In this document: one piece after another, positions 2,910-30,075 of the stretch
Position numbering within the stretch: the stretch's first letter is position 1
Layout: every line of letters begins with the position of its first letter
Source: Escherichia phage REP1
Reading direction: 5' to 3' (one strand)
DNA: 64,000 nucleotides
Sequence record: OQ174500.1
The notes under the pieces: generated by a model
Told to the model about the DNA's origin: nothing
The model's input: the letters and a program-made list of their open reading frames with translations, nothing else
Databases searched by the model: none
Made by a program: the position numbers and the translations under genes

Positions 2910-4723
2910 CAATTGAAAAAGAAATTGAAGGATTGATTCATAAAACTAATAAAGACCTTTTAAACGAGAATGCTAATAAAGATTCTCGTGTTTTTCCAAC
3001 TCAACGGGACCTTATGGCTGGTATTGTGTCTAAACACATTGCCAAAAATATGGTCCCGTCTTTTATTATGAAAGCGCATGAAAGCGGAATTATTCATTTC
3101 CATGATATTGATTATTCCCCTGCTCTTCCATTTACTAATTGCTGTTTAGTAGATTTAAAAGGAATGCTTGAGAATGGATTTAAATTAGGCAATGCTCAAA
3201 TTGAAACGCCTAAATCGATTGGTGTTGCTACTGCAATTATGGCACAAATTACTGCACAAGTTGCTTCCCATCAATACGGCGGAACGACTTTTGCTAATGT
3301 AGATAAAGTACTTTCTCCTTATGTTAAACGCACCTATGCAAAACATATTGAGGATGCAGAAAAATGGCAAATCGCTGATGCGTTGAATTATGCTCAATCC
3401 AAAACAGAAAAAGATGTATACGATGCATTCCAAGCTTATGAATATGAAGTAAATACTCTCTTTAGTTCAAACGGACAAACGCCTTTTGTAACAATTACAT
3501 TTGGTACGGGAACTGACTGGACTGAACGAATGATTCAGAAAGCAATTCTGAAAAATCGTATTAAAGGTCTTGGTCGTGATGGAATAACTCCTATTTTCCC
3601 TAAGCTTGTTATGTTTGTTGAAGAAGGTGTTAATCTTTATAAAGACGATCCGAACTATGATATTAAACAGCTTGCTCTAGAGTGCGCAAGCAAAAGAATG
3701 TATCCTGATATTATTTCAGCTAAGAACAATAAAGCTATCACCGGCTCATCTATTCCTGTTTCTCCAATGGGTTGTCGTAGTTTCTTGAGTGTGTGGAAAG
3801 ATTCGACTGGCAATGAAATTCTTGATGGACGTAATAATCTCGGTGTTGTAACACTGAATCTTCCTCGTATCGCGTTAGATTCTTATATTGGAACACAATT
3901 CAATGAACAGAAATTTGTTGAGCTATTTAATGAACGAATGGATCTGTGTTTTGAAGCATTGATGTGTAGAATTAGTTCCTTAAAAGGAGTTAAAGCGACT
4001 GTTGCTCCTATTCTTTACCAAGAAGGTGCATTCGGGGTTCGTCTTAAACCTGATGACGATATAATTGAGTTATTTAAAAATGGTAGAAGTTCAGTGTCTC
4101 TAGGATACATTGGTATTCACGAATTGAATATTCTTGTCGGTCGTGATATTGGACGAGAAATTTTAACTAAAATGAATGCTCATCTTAAGCAGTGGACTGA
4201 AAGAACCGGATTTGCTTTTAGTTTATATTCGACTCCTGCTGAAAACCTTTGTTATCGCTTCTGTAAACTTGATACAGAAAAATATGGAAGTGTAAAAGAT
4301 GTTACCGATAAAGGCTGGTACACTAACAGTTTCCACGTTTCAGTAGAAGAAAATATTACTCCGTTTGAAAAGATTTCTCGTGAAGCGCCATATCATTTCA
4401 TTGCGACAGGTGGTCACATTTCTTATGTTGAACTTCCTGATATGAAAAATAACTTAAAGGGTCTTGAGGCCGTATGGGATTATGCTGCACAACATTTAGA
4501 TTATTTTGGTGTTAACATGCCAGTAGATAAATGTTTTACATGTGGAAGTACCCATGAAATGACTCCTACTGAAAATGGATTTGTTTGTTCTATTTGTGGA
4601 GAAACTGATCCTAAAAAGATGAACACAATAAGAAGAACATGTGGTTATTTGGGAAATCCGAACGAACGCGGATTTAATCTCGGCAAAAATAAAGAAATCA
4701 TGCATAGGGTTAAGCACCAATGA
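2906..4723 (+). CDS. nrdD: anaerobic ribonucleoside-triphosphate reductase NrdD, uninterrupted
   Basis: 605 aa; C-terminal glycyl-radical motif RTCGYLG and Cys4 zinc ribbon (CFTCGS...CSICGE); continuous ORF. Confidence 0.95.
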   Translation: MTIEKEIEGLIHKTNKDLLNENANKDSRVFPTQRDLMAGIVSKHIAKNMVPSFIMKAHESGIIHFHDIDYSPALPFTNCCLVDLKGMLENGFKLGNAQIETPKSIGVATAIMAQITAQVASHQYGGTTFANVDKVLSPYVKRTYAKHIEDAEKWQIADALNYAQSKTEKDVYDAFQAYEYEVNTLFSSNGQTPFVTITFGTGTDWTERMIQKAILKNRIKGLGRDGITPIFPKLVMFVEEGVNLYKDDPNYDIKQLALECASKRMYPDIISAKNNKAITGSSIPVSPMGCRSFLSVWKDSTGNEILDGRNNLGVVTLNLPRIALDSYIGTQFNEQKFVELFNERMDLCFEALMCRISSLKGVKATVAPILYQEGAFGVRLKPDDDIIELFKNGRSSVSLGYIGIHELNILVGRDIGREILTKMNAHLKQWTERTGFAFSLYSTPAENLCYRFCKLDTEKYGSVKDVTDKGWYTNSFHVSVEENITPFEKISREAPYHFIATGGHISYVELPDMKNNLKGLEAVWDYAAQHLDYFGVNMPVDKCFTCGSTHEMTPTENGFVCSICGETDPKKMNTIRRTCGYLGNPNERGFNLGKNKEIMHRVKHQ

Positions 4724-5190
4724 ATTATGATAGATTTTATCCTTGCGATTTTGTTAATGGTCCTGGCTGCAGGACCGTTCTTTTCGTTACAGGTTGTTTG
4801 CATAAATGCGAAGGGTGTTATAATAAATCAACATGGAATGCTAGAAATGGTGTTCCATTCACTGGTGAAACACTAGAACAATTAATTGAATGTTTGAATA
4901 ATGATTATATAGAAGGATTGACTATAACCGGAGGTGACCCTCTCTATCCTGATAACAGAGACGTGATTCACTCTGTGGTTCAAACTATTAAAAATCTTTA
5001 TCCCAATAAAAGCATTTGGTTGTGGACAGGATATAAGTTTGAAGATATTAAACAACTAGAAATGCTTAAATATGTTGATGTTATTATTGATGGGAAGTAT
5101 GAGAAAAATCTTCCGACTAAAAAGCTGTGGCGAGGATCAGATAATCAGCGACTTTGGTCAAATACCGATGGGGTGTGGAAACATGATTAA
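4720..5190 (+). CDS. nrdG: anaerobic RNR activating enzyme NrdG (radical SAM)
   Basis: 156 aa; CxxxCxxC cluster (CLHKCEGC); ATGA overlap with nrdD stop. Confidence 0.9.
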   Translation: MNYDRFYPCDFVNGPGCRTVLFVTGCLHKCEGCYNKSTWNARNGVPFTGETLEQLIECLNNDYIEGLTITGGDPLYPDNRDVIHSVVQTIKNLYPNKSIWLWTGYKFEDIKQLEMLKYVDVIIDGKYEKNLPTKKLWRGSDNQRLWSNTDGVWKHD

Positions 5191-23879: not shown

Positions 23880-25061
23880 ATGTCTATTGCAGATTTAAAA
23901 TCCCGTTTGATTAAAGCTTCCACTTCTAAAATGACTGCTGAACTGACTACATCTAAATTCTTTAATGAAAAGGATGTAATCCGTACAAAAATCCCAATGC
24001 TTAATATTGCTATTTCTGGTGCGATTGATGGCGGCATGCAGTCTGGTTTAACTATTTTCGCAGGGCCTTCTAAACACTTTAAATCAAATATGTCTTTGAC
24101 TATGGTTGCGGCATATTTGAACAAATATCCTGACGCGGTTTGTCTATTCTATGATAGTGAATTTGGTATTACTCCAGCTTATTTGCGATCCATGGGAGTT
24201 GACCCGGAACGAGTAATTCATACGCCGATTCAGTCAGTTGAACAGCTGAAAATTGATATGGTGAACCAGCTTGAAGCTATTGAGCGTGGTGAAAAGGTTA
24301 TTGTATTCATCGACTCAATCGGTAATATGGCTTCTAAGAAAGAAACGGAAGATGCCTTAAATGAAAAATCTGTGGCAGATATGACTCGTGCTAAATCACT
24401 GAAGTCATTATTCCGTATTGTTACTCCTTATTTTAGCATTAAAAATATTCCGTGCGTTGCGGTTAACCATACAATTGAAACAATTGAAATGTTTAGTAAA
24501 ACCGTGATGACAGGTGGTACAGGCGTAATGTATTCGGCTGATACAGTATTCATTATCGGTAAGCGTCAGATTAAAGATGGTTCTGATCTTCAGGGGTATC
24601 AATTTGTTCTAAATGTAGAAAAATCTCGTACCGTTAAAGAAAAAAGTAAATTCTTTATTGATGTTAAATTTGACGGTGGTATTGATCCTTATTCTGGATT
24701 GCTAGATATGGCTCTTGAATTAGGATTTGTAGTAAAACCTAAAAATGGTTGGTATGCTCGTGAATTTCTTGACGAAGAAACCGGCGAGATGATTCGCGAA
24801 GAAAAATCTTGGCGTGCAAAAGATACCAACTGCACTACATTCTGGGGTCCTTTATTTAAGCATCAACCATTCCGAGATGCTATTAAACGTGCTTATCAAT
24901 TAGGTGCTATTGATAGTAATGAAATTGTTGAAGCTGAAGTTGATGAATTGATTAACTCAAAGGTTGAAAAATTTAAATCTCCAGAAAGTAAAAGTAAATC
25001 AGCAGCTGATTTAGAAACTGACCTCGAACAGTTAAGTGATATGGAAGAATTTAATGAATAA
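23880..25061 (+). CDS. uvsX: recombinase UvsX (RecA-like)
   Basis: 393 aa; Walker A GPSKHFKS; matches T4 UvsX. Confidence 0.95.
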   Translation: MSIADLKSRLIKASTSKMTAELTTSKFFNEKDVIRTKIPMLNIAISGAIDGGMQSGLTIFAGPSKHFKSNMSLTMVAAYLNKYPDAVCLFYDSEFGITPAYLRSMGVDPERVIHTPIQSVEQLKIDMVNQLEAIERGEKVIVFIDSIGNMASKKETEDALNEKSVADMTRAKSLKSLFRIVTPYFSIKNIPCVAVNHTIETIEMFSKTVMTGGTGVMYSADTVFIIGKRQIKDGSDLQGYQFVLNVEKSRTVKEKSKFFIDVKFDGGIDPYSGLLDMALELGFVVKPKNGWYAREFLDEETGEMIREEKSWRAKDTNCTTFWGPLFKHQPFRDAIKRAYQLGAIDSNEIVEAEVDELINSKVEKFKSPESKSKSAADLETDLEQLSDMEEFNE

Positions 25062-25398
25062 AGATGATTTAGATTTAGATCTAGAAATTATCGACGAATC
25101 CCCCTCTTCGGAGGGGGAAGAAGAAAGAAAAGAACGTCTTTTTAATGAATCTCTTAAGATAATTAAATCTGCCATGGAAAATGTTATCCAGGAGATTGTC
25201 ATTAAACTAGAAGATGGTTCTACACACATTGTGTATGTGACAAAATTAGATTGGGTTGATGGAAAAGTCGTAATGGACTTTGCTGTTCTTGACCAAGAAA
25301 GAAAAGCTGAGTTAGCTCCTCATGTAGAAAAATGTATTACAATGCAACTACAAGATGCATTTAATAAAAGGTCAAAGAAAAAGTTTAAATTCTTTTAA
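25054..25398 (+). CDS. 40: gp40-like protein (head vertex assembly chaperone), by position
   Basis: 114 aa from ATG overlapping uvsX stop; acidic. Confidence 0.5.
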   Translation: MNKDDLDLDLEIIDESPSSEGEEERKERLFNESLKIIKSAMENVIQEIVIKLEDGSTHIVYVTKLDWVDGKVVMDFAVLDQERKAELAPHVEKCITMQLQDAFNKRSKKKFKFF

Positions 25399-25407
25399 GG
25401 AGTAAGT

Positions 25408-26835
25408 GTGGTAGAAATTATTCTTTCTCATCTCATATTTGATCAAGCTTATTTTTCAAAAGTTTGGCCATATATGGATTCAGAATATTTTGAAAGTGGT
25501 CCAGCTAAAAATACATTCAAATTAATTAAATCTCATGTTAACGAGTATCATAGCGTTCCATCTATTAATGCGTTAAATGTTGCGTTAGAAAATAGTTCAT
25601 TTACTGAAACAGAATATTCTGGTGTAAAAACACTTATTTCAAAACTGGCTGATTCTCCAGAAGACCACAGTTGGTTAGTAAAAGAAACAGAAAAATATGT
25701 TCAGCAAAGGGCGATGTTTAATGCTACGTCTAAAATAATCGAAATTCAAACTAATGCTGAACTTCCTCCGGAAAAACGAAATAAGAAAATGCCGGATGTT
25801 GGTGCTATTCCTGACATCATGCGTCAAGCATTATCAATTTCATTTGATAGCTACGTTGGTCATGATTGGATGGATGACTACGAAGCACGCTGGCTATCTT
25901 ATATGAATAAAGCTCGTAAGGTTCCATTTAAACTTCGTATTTTGAATAAAATTACAAAAGGCGGAGCTGAAACAGGAACACTGAACGTTTTAATGGCTGG
26001 CGTTAACGTTGGTAAATCATTAGGACTTTGCTCATTAGCAGCAGATTATTTGCAGCTTGGTCATAACGTTCTTTATATCTCCATGGAAATGGCAGAAGAA
26101 GTCTGTGCTAAACGTATTGATGCTAACATGCTCGATGTTTCTCTTGACGATATTGATGATGGACATATTTCTTACGCCGAATATAAAGGAAAAATGGAAA
26201 AATGGCGTGAGAAATCTACTCTCGGTCGTTTAATCGTTAAGCAATATCCTACTGGTGGAGCAGACGCTAATACATTCAGGTCTCTCTTGAATGAATTGAA
26301 GCTCAAGAAGAATTTTGTTCCAACAATCATTATTGTCGACTATCTAGGTATTTGTAAATCTTGCCGCATTAGAGTTTATTCAGAAAATAGTTACACAACT
26401 GTTAAAGCTATCGCAGAGGAATTACGTGCTCTGGCTGTTGAAACAGAAACTGTTCTTTGGACTGCAGCACAGGTTGGTAAACAAGCTTGGGACTCTTCCG
26501 ATGTTAACATGAGCGATATTGCAGAATCTGCTGGTCTTCCAGCAACAGCTGATTTTATGCTTGCGGTCATTGAAACCGAGGAGCTAGCAGCTGCTGAACA
26601 ACAACTCATTAAGCAAATCAAATCACGATATGGTGATAAGAATAAGTGGAATAAGTTTTTGATGGGTGTTCAAAAAGGAAATCAAAAGTGGGTAGAAATT
26701 GAACAAGATTCTACTCCAACTGAAGTGAGTGAAGTAGCAGGTTCACAACAGATTCAGGCTGAACAGAATCGCTATCAAAGAAATGAATCCACTCGAGCTC
26801 AGTTAGATGCTTTGGCAAATGAATTAAAATTTTAG
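25408..26835 (+). CDS. 41: replicative DNA helicase gp41 (DnaB-like)
   Basis: 475 aa; GTG start; Walker A GVNVGKS; matches T4 gp41. Confidence 0.95.
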   Translation: MVEIILSHLIFDQAYFSKVWPYMDSEYFESGPAKNTFKLIKSHVNEYHSVPSINALNVALENSSFTETEYSGVKTLISKLADSPEDHSWLVKETEKYVQQRAMFNATSKIIEIQTNAELPPEKRNKKMPDVGAIPDIMRQALSISFDSYVGHDWMDDYEARWLSYMNKARKVPFKLRILNKITKGGAETGTLNVLMAGVNVGKSLGLCSLAADYLQLGHNVLYISMEMAEEVCAKRIDANMLDVSLDDIDDGHISYAEYKGKMEKWREKSTLGRLIVKQYPTGGADANTFRSLLNELKLKKNFVPTIIIVDYLGICKSCRIRVYSENSYTTVKAIAEELRALAVETETVLWTAAQVGKQAWDSSDVNMSDIAESAGLPATADFMLAVIETEELAAAEQQLIKQIKSRYGDKNKWNKFLMGVQKGNQKWVEIEQDSTPTEVSEVAGSQQIQAEQNRYQRNESTRAQLDALANELKF

Positions 26836-26866
26836 TTTACAAGCTGGCAAGACTATGGTATAGTAG
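26835..26866 (+). promoter_or_regulatory. T4-type early promoter (GTTTAC, 18 nt, TATAGT)
   Basis: Directly downstream of gene 41, upstream of dmd. Confidence 0.5.
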
Positions 26867-26893
26867 TCTTGTTGGTTAAATGAGGAGATTGTT

Positions 26894-27076
26894 ATGGAAT
26901 TAGTAAAGGTAGTTTTTATGGGGTGGTTTAAGAATGAAAGCATGTTTACTAAAGAAATCACAATGATGAAAGATGACGTTCAATGGGCTACTACTCAATA
27001 TGCTGAAGTTAATAAAGCATTAGTTAAAGCTTTCATTGATGACAAGCAAGTGTGTGAAGTAGATTGCAGAGGATAA
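26894..27076 (+). CDS. dmd: Dmd antitoxin (inhibitor of host RnlA/LsoA toxins)
   Basis: 60 aa; MELVKVVFMGWFKNESMFTKEI... matches T4 Dmd. Confidence 0.85.
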   Translation: MELVKVVFMGWFKNESMFTKEITMMKDDVQWATTQYAEVNKALVKAFIDDKQVCEVDCRG

Positions 27077-27077
27077 T

Positions 27078-27335
27078 ATGCATATTGTTTTATTTAAACC
27101 TACTCCGTATAATGTTAGGAAAAATACTCAATTCAAGGCACTTATTGCGGATACGTGGGAATTGGTGTTAGATATTCCAGCAGAAGAAAGTCCTCCATTT
27201 GGTCGAGTGGAATTTATTAAGTTTGCTGTGCGCCCTACGAAGCGACAGATTCGCCAATGCAAAAGATACTTTCGTAAAATCGTCAAGTTAGAGAAACAGT
27301 TTGTAACATGTGATTATGCAGAAGTTTTAAAATAG
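27078..27335 (+). CDS. hypothetical protein (61.4-like)
   Basis: 85-aa ORF. Confidence 0.5.
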   Translation: MHIVLFKPTPYNVRKNTQFKALIADTWELVLDIPAEESPPFGRVEFIKFAVRPTKRQIRQCKRYFRKIVKLEKQFVTCDYAEVLK

Positions 27336-27337
27336 CT

Positions 27338-27366
27338 GTTTACTTTTGTTGGAAATTGATATACTA
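27338..27366 (+). promoter_or_regulatory. early promoter (GTTTAC ... TATACT)
   Basis: ctGTTTACttttgttggaaattgaTATACT upstream of sp. Confidence 0.45.
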
Positions 27367-27395
27367 TATAAACATAAACTACTGAGGAGATTATC

Positions 27396-27689
27396 ATGAA
27401 AAAATTTATTTTTGCTACAATTTTTACTTTGGCTTCTTGTGCTGCTCAGCCTTCTATGGCAGGATATGATAAAGATTTGTGTGAATGGTCTATGACTGCA
27501 GATCAGACTGAAGTTGAAACTCAAATTGAAGCGGATATTATGAATATCGTTGAGCGCGATCGTCCTGAAATGAAAGCTGAAGTGCAAAAACAACTTAAGT
27601 CTGGTGGTGTAATGCAGTATAATTATGTTCTGTATTGCGATAAAAACTTTAATAACAAAAATATCGTAACCGAAATCACAGGCGAATAA
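27396..27689 (+). CDS. sp: spackle periplasmic protein Sp
   Basis: 97 aa; N-terminal signal peptide MKKFIFATIFTLASCAAQPSMA; length and position match T4 sp. Confidence 0.75.
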   Translation: MKKFIFATIFTLASCAAQPSMAGYDKDLCEWSMTADQTEVETQIEADIMNIVERDRPEMKAEVQKQLKSGGVMQYNYVLYCDKNFNNKNIVTEITGE

Positions 27690-27690
27690 T

Positions 27691-28323
27691 ATGATTTATT
27701 ATATGCACAAAAATCCACCGTTTAAATACGGTAAATTTCCTGATGCACAATGTTATAATATAACGCCTGATGAAAATAACCGTGGATATCTTATTGGCAC
27801 AATTTTTGTAATTGTTAAAGATAACGAAATCGTTGCCTGGGCAGATTTTAAAGGTACAACATATGATGTTAATCCGGTGCCTTTCACATATTACAATTTA
27901 ATGGATTTGGCATACGATTATAATTGGTTTAATCATGACACTTTGGCTCATATTGAAGGTGTAGGATTTGATATTTCATATTCGGAATACACTTTAAGCC
28001 CTATGAGTCGAGCCCATAAAGAACCTGAATATTTTTCATTTAGGAAACGTTTAAACTTTAAACGCAGCACAGAGTATGTCGGTGGAATCTTTGTTAAAGA
28101 TAATCGAATTATTCGTATTAATTATGCTTTGAGCGTTAGTCAAAAAGATATTGATGTTGATTTAGATTTCACTGAAAATAATATTAATAATATTGCTTCT
28201 GTGTATTTTGGTATCGATCACAAAATTGTAATATGTGGATATGAATTACCGTTTGAAGAACAGCCTAAAGTAAAAGTTTCTATTGACGATCAAATTTTTA
28301 ATGCTTTTATGAATAAAGGTTAA
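27691..28323 (+). CDS. hypothetical protein with internal domain repeat (61.2-like)
   Basis: 210 aa; two VKDNxI-containing repeats; C-terminal SIDDQIFNAFMNKG. Confidence 0.5.
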   Translation: MIYYMHKNPPFKYGKFPDAQCYNITPDENNRGYLIGTIFVIVKDNEIVAWADFKGTTYDVNPVPFTYYNLMDLAYDYNWFNHDTLAHIEGVGFDISYSEYTLSPMSRAHKEPEYFSFRKRLNFKRSTEYVGGIFVKDNRIIRINYALSVSQKDIDVDLDFTENNINNIASVYFGIDHKIVICGYELPFEEQPKVKVSIDDQIFNAFMNKG

Positions 28324-28324
28324 T

Positions 28325-28681
28325 ATGTATAGTTCTGAATTTTCATATTTAAAAATGGAAAAAATTTCATACGATTTTATAGATGAAAAGGTTTATTACA
28401 GTTTCCATGAACCGCGTTTTAATAGTGAGGTTGGGTTTATTGTAGTAAAAGACAATTTCATTTTAAAGATATATTCGGCATTAAAGGATTTTCACTACGA
28501 AAATATTAACCTAAAATTTGATAAAGAAAACGTTCGTAATTGTGCAGTAACAATTACAGGAAATAAAGGTACATGTGTTATGCTATCTGATGAAATTAAT
28601 GATTTGCTAAATGATGCAGAAAATATTACTGCGCCATCTATTGATGACCAAATTTTTAATGCTTTTATGAATAGAGGTTAA
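28325..28681 (+). CDS. hypothetical protein, paralog of preceding ORF
   Basis: 118 aa; VKDNFIL motif and near-identical C-terminal SIDDQIFNAFMNRG. Confidence 0.45.
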   Translation: MYSSEFSYLKMEKISYDFIDEKVYYSFHEPRFNSEVGFIVVKDNFILKIYSALKDFHYENINLKFDKENVRNCAVTITGNKGTCVMLSDEINDLLNDAENITAPSIDDQIFNAFMNRG

Positions 28682-28682
28682 T

Positions 28683-28847
28683 ATGAAAACATATAAAGAA
28701 TTTATTAAAGAAGATATGGTCGCTGGAGATTCAGGTGGTAATCCTGAAAATATCTCTACTGGAACAACGTCAGGTGCTGTAGTAAATAAAGGTCCTGAAC
28801 AGATTCCTAAAAAGAAAAAAGAGGAATCTAAAGAAAAAGAAGAGTAA
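28683..28847 (+). CDS. hypothetical small Lys/Glu-rich protein (61.1-like); end uncertain
   Basis: ATG 1 nt after upstream stop; about 42-54 aa depending on exact reading. Confidence 0.3.
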   Translation: MKTYKEFIKEDMVAGDSGGNPENISTGTTSGAVVNKGPEQIPKKKKEESKEKEE

Positions 28848-28849
28848 AA

Positions 28850-29878
28850 ATGTCATCAATACCTTGGATTGATAATGAGTTTGCATACCGTGCATTAGCT
28901 CATCTACCTAAATTCACACAAGTAAATAATAGTTCAACTTTTAAATTACGGTTTAGATGTCCTGTTTGTGGAGATTCAAAAACCGATCAAAATAAAGCCC
29001 GTGGATGGTATTATGGCGATAATAATGAAGGAAATATTCATTGTTATAACTGTAATTATCATGCACCAATCGGAATATATTTAAAGGAGTTTGAACCTGA
29101 TTTATATCGTGAGTATATCTTTGAAATAAGAAAAGAAAAAGGTAAAAGTCGTCCAGTAGAAAAACCTAAAGAACTTCCTAAGCAACCTGAGAAGAAAATA
29201 ATTAAATCTCTTCCGTCATGTGTTAGATTAGATAAACTGGCGGAAGACCATCCAATTATAAAATATGTAAAAGCTCGTTGTATTCCAAAGGATAAATGGA
29301 AATATCTTTGGTTTACAACCGAATGGCCTAAATTAGTTAATAGCATAGCACCGGGAACATACAAAAAGGAAATTTCTGAGCCTCGTCTTGTTATTCCAAT
29401 TTATAATGCTAATGGAAAAGCTGAGTCTTTTCAAGGACGTGCATTAAAGAAAGATGCTCCACAAAAGTATATCACCATCAAAGCTTATCCTGAGGCAACA
29501 AAAATTTACGGTGTTGAACGAGTTAAAGATGGTGATGTATATGTTCTAGAAGGACCCATCGATTCACTTTTTATTGAAAATGGTATAGCCATTACTGGCG
29601 GTCAATTAGACCTAGAAGTTGTTCCATTTAAAGATAGACGAGTGTGGGTTTTAGATAATGAACCTCGTCACCCTGACACTATCAAACGAATGACTAAATT
29701 AGTTGATGCAGGAGAAAGGGTTATGTTTTGGGATAAATCTCCCTGGAAATCAAAAGATGTTAATGATATGATTAGAAAGGAAGGTGCAACCCCTGAACAA
29801 ATTATGGAATATATGAAAAATAATATTGCCCAGGGGTTGATGGCTAAAATGCGGTTATCTAAATATGCTAAGATTTAA
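28850..29878 (+). CDS. 61: DNA primase gp61
   Basis: 342 aa; N-terminal zinc ribbon CPVCGDS...CYNCNYH; matches T4 gp61. Confidence 0.93.
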   Translation: MSSIPWIDNEFAYRALAHLPKFTQVNNSSTFKLRFRCPVCGDSKTDQNKARGWYYGDNNEGNIHCYNCNYHAPIGIYLKEFEPDLYREYIFEIRKEKGKSRPVEKPKELPKQPEKKIIKSLPSCVRLDKLAEDHPIIKYVKARCIPKDKWKYLWFTTEWPKLVNSIAPGTYKKEISEPRLVIPIYNANGKAESFQGRALKKDAPQKYITIKAYPEATKIYGVERVKDGDVYVLEGPIDSLFIENGIAITGGQLDLEVVPFKDRRVWVLDNEPRHPDTIKRMTKLVDAGERVMFWDKSPWKSKDVNDMIRKEGATPEQIMEYMKNNIAQGLMAKMRLSKYAKI

Positions 29879-30075
29879 ATTAACCCAACTAAAGCAAATG
29901 CTAAATCTACAAATGTATCAAGAGTAACCACTGGAATATTAATACCATGTGCAATTGCAATAGGTGATAGAATAAAGTTCCAGAGTAAAATTCCTACCAT
30001 AGCAGAAATAGTAAAAGCTATACGTTTTTTATTACCTTTTATGGCATTAACAAGTGCCATTAATTTTTGTACCAT
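29875..30075 (-). CDS. hypothetical small membrane protein encoded antisense to the early genes
   Basis: 66 aa, two hydrophobic segments; strong SD (AAGGAGGA) 3 nt upstream of ATG on - strand; AATAAATA late-promoter-like box upstream. Confidence 0.4.
   Translation of the reverse strand: MVQKLMALVNAIKGNKKRIAFTISAMVGILLWNFILSPIAIAHGINIPVVTLDTFVDLAFALVGLI

Follow-up and report, generated by a model that had tools for sequence, protein, structure and literature searches.

Organization of the region between gene 41 and gene 61

The window analyzed here is a stretch of 64,000 nucleotides from Escherichia phage REP1 (OQ174500.1), a Tequatrovirus (T4-like) genome. The genes in and around the region of interest are given below, with the basis for each identification in parentheses.

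23880–25061, plus strand: uvsX, 393 aa (ORF list)
25036–25398, plus strand: gene 40, 120 aa (ORF list)
25408–26835, plus strand: gene 41, primase-helicase subunit, 475 aa (ORF list; annotation in Phaginator, the nearest record)
26894–27076, plus strand: dmd (61.5), 60 aa (Pfam, PDB, identity to T4)
27078–27335, plus strand: tifA (formerly 61.4), 85 aa (Pfam DUF7279, identity to T4)
27396–27689, plus strand: sp (61.3, spackle), 97 aa (Pfam T4_Spackle, PDB)
27691–28323, plus strand: adfA (61.2), 210 aa (Pfam AdfA, 1.3e-137)
28325–28681, plus strand: 118-aa ORF, relative of the C-terminal half of AdfA (Pfam AdfA, 1.1e-7; BLASTP)
28683–28847, plus strand: 61.1, 54 aa, function unknown (PHROG 1823, 7e-34; synteny with T4 61.1)
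28850–29878, plus strand: primase gene 61, 342 aa (ORF list)

The dmd gene starts 58 nt past the gene 41 stop codon, and 61.1 is the final gene of the cluster, just ahead of gene 61. The preliminary description of this DNA had noted three small ORFs (dmd, 61.4, and sp) following gene 41, and the ORF coordinates equal the interval 26894–27689 exactly. Chance matches were ruled out by the Pfam results for the three products: Dmd matched PF17587 (6e-46, over residues 1–60 of 60), the 85-aa ORF matched PF23945 (DUF7279; 2.3e-20, with 72.7 bits where the cut-off is 24.5), and Sp matched PF25676 (T4_Spackle; 2.5e-44). These identities agreed with those from PHROGs; none of the six small proteins is covered by an NCBIfam model. 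A terminator scan of positions 26500–29000 found none. The ORFs on the opposite strand in this region, such as one of 88 aa at 27327–27593, were without support and overlapped well-supported genes, and they were treated as chance.

The sequence from 26700 to 27800 was 99.7% identical to that of Shigella phage vB_SboM_Phaginator, the closest record, and 97–98% identical to those of hundreds of Escherichia and Shigella T-even phages. The dmd-tifA-sp stretch was found in 600 phage records, with coverage of at least 80% in 500 of them.

The dmd and sp products

Dmd was identical to T4 Dmd at 59 of 60 residues, the difference being K52Q, and its gene occupies the same place as in T4, directly downstream of gene 41. 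It also matched the PDB chain 5hy3_B, "Antitoxin Dmd" (5.8e-37); entry 5HY3 is the RnlA–Dmd complex. Dmd is a direct inhibitor of the host RNase toxins RnlA and LsoA (PMC9391042). The earlier assignment of this protein as an antitoxin against RnlA/LsoA is upheld by the full-length Pfam match, the PDB match, and the near-identity to T4, which predict the same activity for the Dmd of this phage.

Sp matched the PDB chain 6x6o_A (2.1e-59) and was 93% identical to T4 Sp, with seven substitutions, four of which fall within the last seven residues. Its signal peptide comprises residues 1–22 (N-terminus MKKFIFATIFTLASCAAQPSMA), and the mature chain 7cn6_A aligns from Sp residue 23, which fits cleavage of this signal peptide. 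The T4 Sp of the Spackle structures (PDB 6X6O, 6XC0, and 7CN6) is likewise expressed from a promoter of its own. In the periplasm, Sp inhibits the gp5 tail lysozyme of T-even phages that superinfect the cell (PMC7677548). The preliminary description had presented Sp as a secreted protein acting in exclusion, in agreement with the signal peptide, the spackle match, and the published role in superinfection exclusion (PMC7677548). Because it inhibits the gp5 lysozyme of a superinfecting phage, Sp is an exclusion factor and not an anti-defense factor.

Identity and coding status of the 85-aa ORF

The product of the 85-aa ORF has the same length as T4 gp61.4/TifA and is identical to it at 84 of 85 residues, the sole change being I83V; its identity to RB69 TifA is 57%. 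The TifA family corresponds to PHROG 2375. Residues 1–81 are identical in the window, T4, and T2 proteins, and the window protein differs from each of the other two only in the last four residues (C-terminal tails YAEVLK in the window, YAEILK in T4, and YAKVLK in T2). The I83V change sits in a dispensable C-terminal extension that is absent from RB69 TifA. In public data the V83 allele and the T4 allele are equally common (207 vs. 215 contigs), and the V83 allele of this phage would be expected to behave like that of T4. Residues F41, P53, T54, K55, R56, and R59 are all kept in the window protein.

Only 7 TifA relatives, all of them close, came from a word-indexed search for homologues. When 1.84 billion representatives were searched exhaustively with phmmer, 11 clusters were obtained at E ≤ 1e-3. 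The distant homologues P0009 through P0017 all have W27-E28 and the motif RPTKRQIR..KR.FRK in common, and the helix-cap and basic motif RPTKRQIRQ.KR.FRK is conserved in 10 divergent TifA homologues. Residues 52–73 of the window protein have a pI of 11.5, with 10 Lys and Arg residues vs. 1 Asp or Glu. One of the 11 clusters, P0008 (2435 aa, repetitive, with 0 matched stretches), was rejected as a compositional false positive.

Relative to T4, tifA had 10 synonymous and 1 nonsynonymous nucleotide differences, and dmd had 4 and 1, respectively. Because synonymous changes predominate, we conclude that both are real coding genes under purifying selection. Some gene callers give versions of the tifA product of 93–98 aa with an N-terminal MTRK... 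extension, which would fit the alternative that the 85-aa ORF is a chance or mis-called frame, for example part of a longer 98-aa product starting within dmd. Any such upstream extension is shut off in the window by a TAG in frame at 27060–27062, which therefore sets the tifA start at 27078. The Pfam match, the conservation of both the Shine-Dalgarno sequence and the ATG, and the purifying selection also favor the 85-aa product, which is the one employed in the T4 experiments (PMC9391042). We regard a mis-called frame as exceedingly improbable. We have high confidence in the assignment of the 85-aa ORF as a tifA orthologue that would work like T4 TifA, the activity being predicted from the near-identity of the two proteins.

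Promoters and operon structure

The transcription and translation signals of the segment are as follows.

26836–26864, plus strand: early-type sigma-70 promoter for dmd and tifA (TTTACA, 17-nt spacer, TG, TATAGT)
27069–27073, plus strand: tifA Shine-Dalgarno sequence GAGGA, within the last dmd codons and 4 nt ahead of the ATG
27339–27367, plus strand: second early-type promoter, upstream of sp (TTTACT, 17-nt spacer, TACTAT), read from the sequence

In the promoter scan the first of these promoters had 10 of 12 matches together with the extended TG, and both of its hexamers are unchanged in T4. The sp promoter, with 8 of 12 matches, fell under the threshold of the generic promoter scan; its T4 copy differs by one spacer base. 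Two promoters annotated in the record of phage Lutter map to window positions 26835–26864 and 27338–27367, and that record has no annotated promoter between dmd and tifA. The dmd stop codon (TAA, 27074–27076) is separated from the tifA ATG at 27078 by a gap of 1 nt, so no promoter fits between the two genes. According to the literature, dmd and tifA form a two-gene operon, both genes being expressed from one early promoter that lies upstream of dmd (PMC9391042). The layout seen here, taken with that literature, identifies dmd-tifA as an operon with a single predicted early promoter. The statement in the preliminary description that each of the three genes has its own early promoter consequently holds for dmd and sp, which have promoter-like sites upstream, and fails for 61.4, which shares the dmd promoter across the 1-nt gap.

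Extent of the gene cluster

The promoter arrangement bears on the view that dmd, 61.4, and sp are one compact, co-evolving module in which every gene has a promoter to itself and the ORF in the middle is an anti-defense gene yet to be characterized. The three genes are all early genes, they adjoin one another in an unchanged order in Tequatrovirus and in Dhakavirus JS98, and public records keep 61.4 labeled as a hypothetical protein. Against these points, 61.4 has been characterized as TifA and is without a promoter of its own; the target of Sp is the lysozyme of incoming phage in the periplasm and no host defense (PMC7677548); and the anti-toxin cluster runs past sp to adfA. Moreover, RB69 has imm.1 and imm between tifA and sp, so only the dmd-tifA link is conserved. 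We consider a single module of this kind very unlikely. What stands of the compact module first described is the co-location of the three genes and the co-transcription of dmd with tifA; the separate transcription of sp and the extension of the cluster to adfA do not fit it.

A T4 "anti-TA island" composed of dmd, tifA, and adfA has been proposed (PMC9391042). In the window these three genes all lie between gene 41, which ends at 26835, and gene 61, which starts at 28850, and they have the same order, strand, and predicted early expression as in the T4 island. The window differs from T4 in having the additional 118-aa ORF between adfA and 61.1 and in carrying a diverged adfA allele.

The adfA slot

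The product of adfA is anti-DarT factor A. The window protein was 73% identical to T4 AdfA and 83% identical to RB69 AdfA, and its N-terminal 60 residues were strongly diverged from those of T4. At the specificity-determining position the window protein has Asn167, where RB69 has R164 and T4 has His; R164 (RB69) is non-neutralizing, and His (T4) is neutralizing.

The 118-aa ORF matched AdfA profile positions 113–211 in Pfam (31.9 bits, cut-off 27) and showed 38% identity by BLASTP (E 2e-11) with the C-terminal half of the window AdfA, and it forms a separate PHROG, 4122. It was present in 337 phage records, annotated as hypothetical every time. The contents of the slot differ among phages: T4 has adfA only, T2 has the 118-aa ORF instead of adfA, and the window has both. 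T2 has been described as naturally without adfA. The 3' ends of adfA and the 118-aa ORF are identical at 46 of 49 nt, and the two genes are otherwise diverged; phage Lutter has annotated promoters over both 3'-end copies. These shared ends and the Lutter promoters suggest either that a regulatory element is embedded here or that the ends mark a cassette junction.

A tentative reading, to which we give distinctly less than an even chance, is that the slot between sp and 61.1 is a swappable cassette, that the 118-aa protein is an extra anti-toxin factor, and that the Asn-containing AdfA has a distinct DarT specificity; the related idea that TifA has targets beyond ToxN is weaker. The target of the 118-aa protein could be, for example, a different DarT or another TA toxin.

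Function of TifA

Gene 61.4 was renamed tifA in 2022, when its product was described as a protein that inhibits the type III toxin ToxN (Srikant, Guegler and Laub, eLife 2022; PMC9391042), and a study of its mechanism followed (Guegler et al., NAR 2023; PMC10853763). When T4 was selected on E. coli carrying toxIN, amplification of the two-gene dmd-61.4 locus arose repeatedly, and T4 plaquing was restored by plasmid-encoded 61.4 and not by dmd (PMC9391042). TifA rescued cells from ToxN toxicity, and TifA-FLAG pulled down ToxN-His6 during infection (PMC9391042). Two CRISPR-made T4 tifA disruptions lowered plaquing approximately 100-fold on cells with chromosomal toxIN and not on those with the catalytic mutant (PMC9391042). 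At native dosage T4 TifA did not overcome plasmid-borne toxIN (PMC9391042), and the identical core implies that the same limit would apply to the window TifA. The work on ToxN inhibition, RNA binding, and deletion phenotypes covers the T4, T2, T6, and RB69 proteins (PMC9391042, PMC10853763). Both T4 and T2 TifA inhibit ToxN (PMC10853763); RB69 TifA, which is without the C-terminal extension, is more potent than T4 TifA.

The preliminary description had proposed the 85-aa ORF as an anti-defense factor by association. That proposal was right, and had already been proven in T4 by the ToxN rescue and the approximately 100-fold loss of plaquing on disruption (PMC9391042); the ORF was no longer unknown, having been characterized as TifA in 2022–2023 (PMC9391042, PMC10853763). 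The experiments suggested at that time, expression of the ORF against toxin-antitoxin systems and analysis of a deletion phenotype, are published for T4, and the phenotype is present (PMC9391042).

Because the native antitoxin of ToxN is an RNA, and because a pseudo-toxI is known in Pectobacterium phage PhiTE (PMC9391042), the effector might be the tifA transcript, acting as a pseudo-toxI RNA or as a decoy substrate as in the escape of PhiTE. In T4, deletion of the tifA start codon abolished activity, a tifA gene recoded at 55 of 258 nt stayed active, and removal of a putative ToxN site in tifA had no effect (PMC9391042). The inactivity of the start-codon deletion and the activity of the recoded gene identify the T4 TifA protein as the effector. 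In the window, toxI-like tandem repeats are absent from the region, and the 10:1 ratio of synonymous to nonsynonymous differences indicates constraint on the tifA protein. An Rfam scan of positions 26000–29500 found no RNA family at E values up to 1, which argues against an RNA element or pseudo-toxI. We give an RNA effector almost no chance. The PhiTE pseudo-toxI and other phage antitoxin mimics of that type share with TifA the toxIN target and the escape from abortive infection; they are RNA mimics of toxI, whereas TifA is a protein with an RNA co-factor and is unrelated to them in sequence.

With the protein as effector, the question of its main target arises. The substitutions P53A/T54A or K55A/R56A/R59A abolished RNA co-purification, ToxN neutralization, and co-precipitation, and loop residue 41 tunes the potency of TifA, F41S and F41H being stronger (PMC10853763). 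TifA homologues differ in which ToxN they neutralize, and several distant homologues neutralized none of the toxins tested (PMC10853763). TifA bound RNA, ssDNA, and dsDNA in vitro with no obvious sequence preference (PMC10853763), and native T4 TifA is a weak inhibitor of plasmid-borne ToxN. These observations would be accommodated if the main target of the orthologue in this phage were another type III toxin or a defense RNase, or if the protein shielded RNA in general. However, T4 and T2 TifA, which have the same 1–81 core as the window protein, neutralize the ToxN proteins of E. coli, P. atrosepticum, K. pneumoniae, and S. sonnei and are inactive on distant ToxN or TenpN (PMC10853763), and the phenotype of the T4 tifA mutant requires toxIN (PMC9391042). 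The toxin specificity of TifA argues against generic RNA coating. A different main target seems very unlikely to us. We infer that ToxN is the target in the Shigella and E. coli hosts of this phage, an assignment that is predictive because the homologues vary in ToxN specificity.

Predicted structure of TifA

An AF2 model of the window TifA made from a diverse alignment had a pLDDT of 78.5 and a pTM of 0.63; an earlier run on a shallow, near-identical alignment (pLDDT 52) was discarded. The model has strands at residues 2–6, 27–33, and 43–49 and a helix at residues 55–84 that begins directly past P53-T54, with only moderate confidence at residues 11–20 and 71–85. In the published AlphaFold model TifA is L-shaped: a three-stranded sheet at the N-terminus is followed by a loop of approximately 20 residues and then by a basic helix at the C-terminus, with P53-T54 as its cap (PMC10853763). 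The predicted fold of the window TifA matches this description. The ToxN–TifA interface in the published AlphaFold prediction is of low confidence (PMC10853763).

A search of PDB sequences with TifA returned nothing at E ≤ 1, and Foldseek against the PDB with the TifA model gave a best E value of 1.2, with no meaningful structural relative. Foldseek against BFVD returned only TifA homologues of T4-like phages.

Repeats flanking dmd-tifA

An exact 10-nt direct repeat, TGAGGAGATT (repeat family D1), is present in two copies.

26881–26890, plus strand: left copy, in the dmd ribosome-binding region
27383–27392, plus strand: right copy, in the sp ribosome-binding region

The copies are 502 nt apart, start to start, and bracket dmd-tifA. 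In T4, segmental amplifications of dmd-tifA are bounded by flanking 6- to 10-bp microhomologies. These T4 amplifications need the homing endonuclease SegB (PMC13096335). We infer that the TGAGGAGATT repeat is a candidate microhomology that may serve in amplification of dmd-tifA in this phage. Gene dosage at the dmd-tifA locus can rise by microhomology-mediated amplification.

Discussion

Taken together, the results make it very probable that this DNA is the early, two-promoter dmd-tifA-sp segment of a T4-type phage, in which TifA neutralizes ToxN, Dmd neutralizes RnlA and LsoA, and Sp inhibits the gp5 lysozyme; none of the results speaks against it. The parts of this reading that come from the present analysis are gene identity, operon layout, the conserved functional residues, and the predicted fold.

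According to this model, the promoter at 26836–26864 would produce a bicistronic dmd-tifA mRNA early in infection. The labile antitoxins that the host makes against RnlA and LsoA would decay after infection, and Dmd would then bind and block both toxins. Phage-induced shut-off of host transcription would likewise prevent resupply of the toxI RNA antitoxin and release ToxN, the endoribonuclease of the type III toxIN abortive-infection system, which would be neutralized by TifA. In this step the basic TifA helix would bind RNA, and the sheet and loop would touch ToxN near the groove for toxI or substrate. The resulting ToxN–TifA–RNA particle would keep ToxN on RNAs present in large amounts, 16S rRNA in particular, and there would then be no turnover on phage transcripts; such trapping of ToxN on abundant RNA is the proposal of Guegler et al. 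(PMC10853763). From the promoter at 27339–27367, Sp would be made and exported to the periplasm, where it would bind the lysozyme domain of gp5 from T-even phages that arrive later, leading to superinfection exclusion.

The dmd-tifA-sp finding is correct and already known, the question of 61.4 having been settled experimentally in 2022–2023. Annotation trails the literature at this locus: public records, PHROGs, and Pfam keep tifA as a hypothetical protein or a DUF. Because of this lag, a reading from sequence raised the settled function of 61.4 as an open question. Phage counter-defense is seen at this locus in textbook form, with two co-transcribed antitoxin mimics directed against RNase toxins lying beside an anti-DarT factor. 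The part that goes beyond the literature consulted is the variable slot just downstream, with adfA and the 118-aa ORF.

TifA reading frame and records of its homologues

Because of an in-frame ATG within dmd in T4 and some of its relatives, gene callers predict 93–98-aa forms of TifA (beginning MTRK). The segment of the window concerned is 27036–27078, and the proteins concerned are P0001 and P0002. This extension was rejected for the window, because it is closed by a TAG at 27060–27062. Some relatives have an 80-aa TifA with an alternative short C-terminus (…EKQLLMLVK). Among public records, the TifA copy of Shigella phage KNP5 is mislabelled as "DNA polymerase", and a 3.2-kb contig attributed to Enterococcus faecalis, probably through contamination, carries a 98-aa TifA. 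The closest record, that of Shigella phage Phaginator, mislabels the 54-aa homologue of 61.1 (4984–5148) as "putative major capsid protein".

Arrangement around dmd-tifA

The dmd-tifA operon is flanked on both sides by copies of an exact 10-nt direct repeat, TGAGGAGATT, located on the + strand at 26881–26890 and 27383–27392, which are the ribosome-binding regions of dmd and of sp, respectively. The length of this repeat matches that of the T4 microhomologies that bounded experimental dmd-tifA amplifications. RB69 (NC_004928) differs in having the superinfection-immunity genes imm and imm.1 (3012–3690) between tifA (61.4) and sp, so that the exclusion genes imm and sp are neighbors there, and two additional small ORFs, RB69ORF040c and RB69ORF041c, between gene 41 and dmd.

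The adfA region and the end of gene 61

Two further ORFs lie in this part of the window:

28325–28681, + strand, 118-aa ORF between adfA and 61.1
29875–30075, − strand, 66-aa hydrophobic ORF just past the primase gene 61, on the opposite strand from it

The 66-aa ORF is annotated as "hypothetical" in the Phaginator, Lutter and T2 records; the T4 record has no CDS annotated in the gene 61–dam interval.

The AdfA of the window (27691–28323, + strand) has 83% identity with the RB69 protein and 73% with the T4 protein; from the latter it differs greatly over the N-terminal ~60 aa. At the specificity-determining position it has Asn (N167), whereas the non-neutralizing RB69 protein has Arg (R164) and the neutralizing T4 protein has His.

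The 118-aa ORF is absent from T4, and in T2 it occupies the slot in place of adfA. It aligns with the C-terminal half of AdfA at 38% identity, shares with it a C-terminal SIDDQIFNAFMN(K/R)G, and passes the Pfam AdfA cut-off on profile positions 113–211 only; it has its own PHROG, 4122. All 337 phage records containing this ORF label it "hypothetical".

At the nucleotide level, adfA and the 118-aa ORF end alike: their 3′ ends (28279–28327 and 28637–28685, + strand) are identical at 46 of 49 positions, a match that spans the stop codon and the following ATG; outside it the two sequences have diverged. A promoter is annotated on each copy in the record of phage Lutter. One possibility is that cassettes are gained and lost by recombination at this shared 3′ end; another is that it is an embedded regulatory element.
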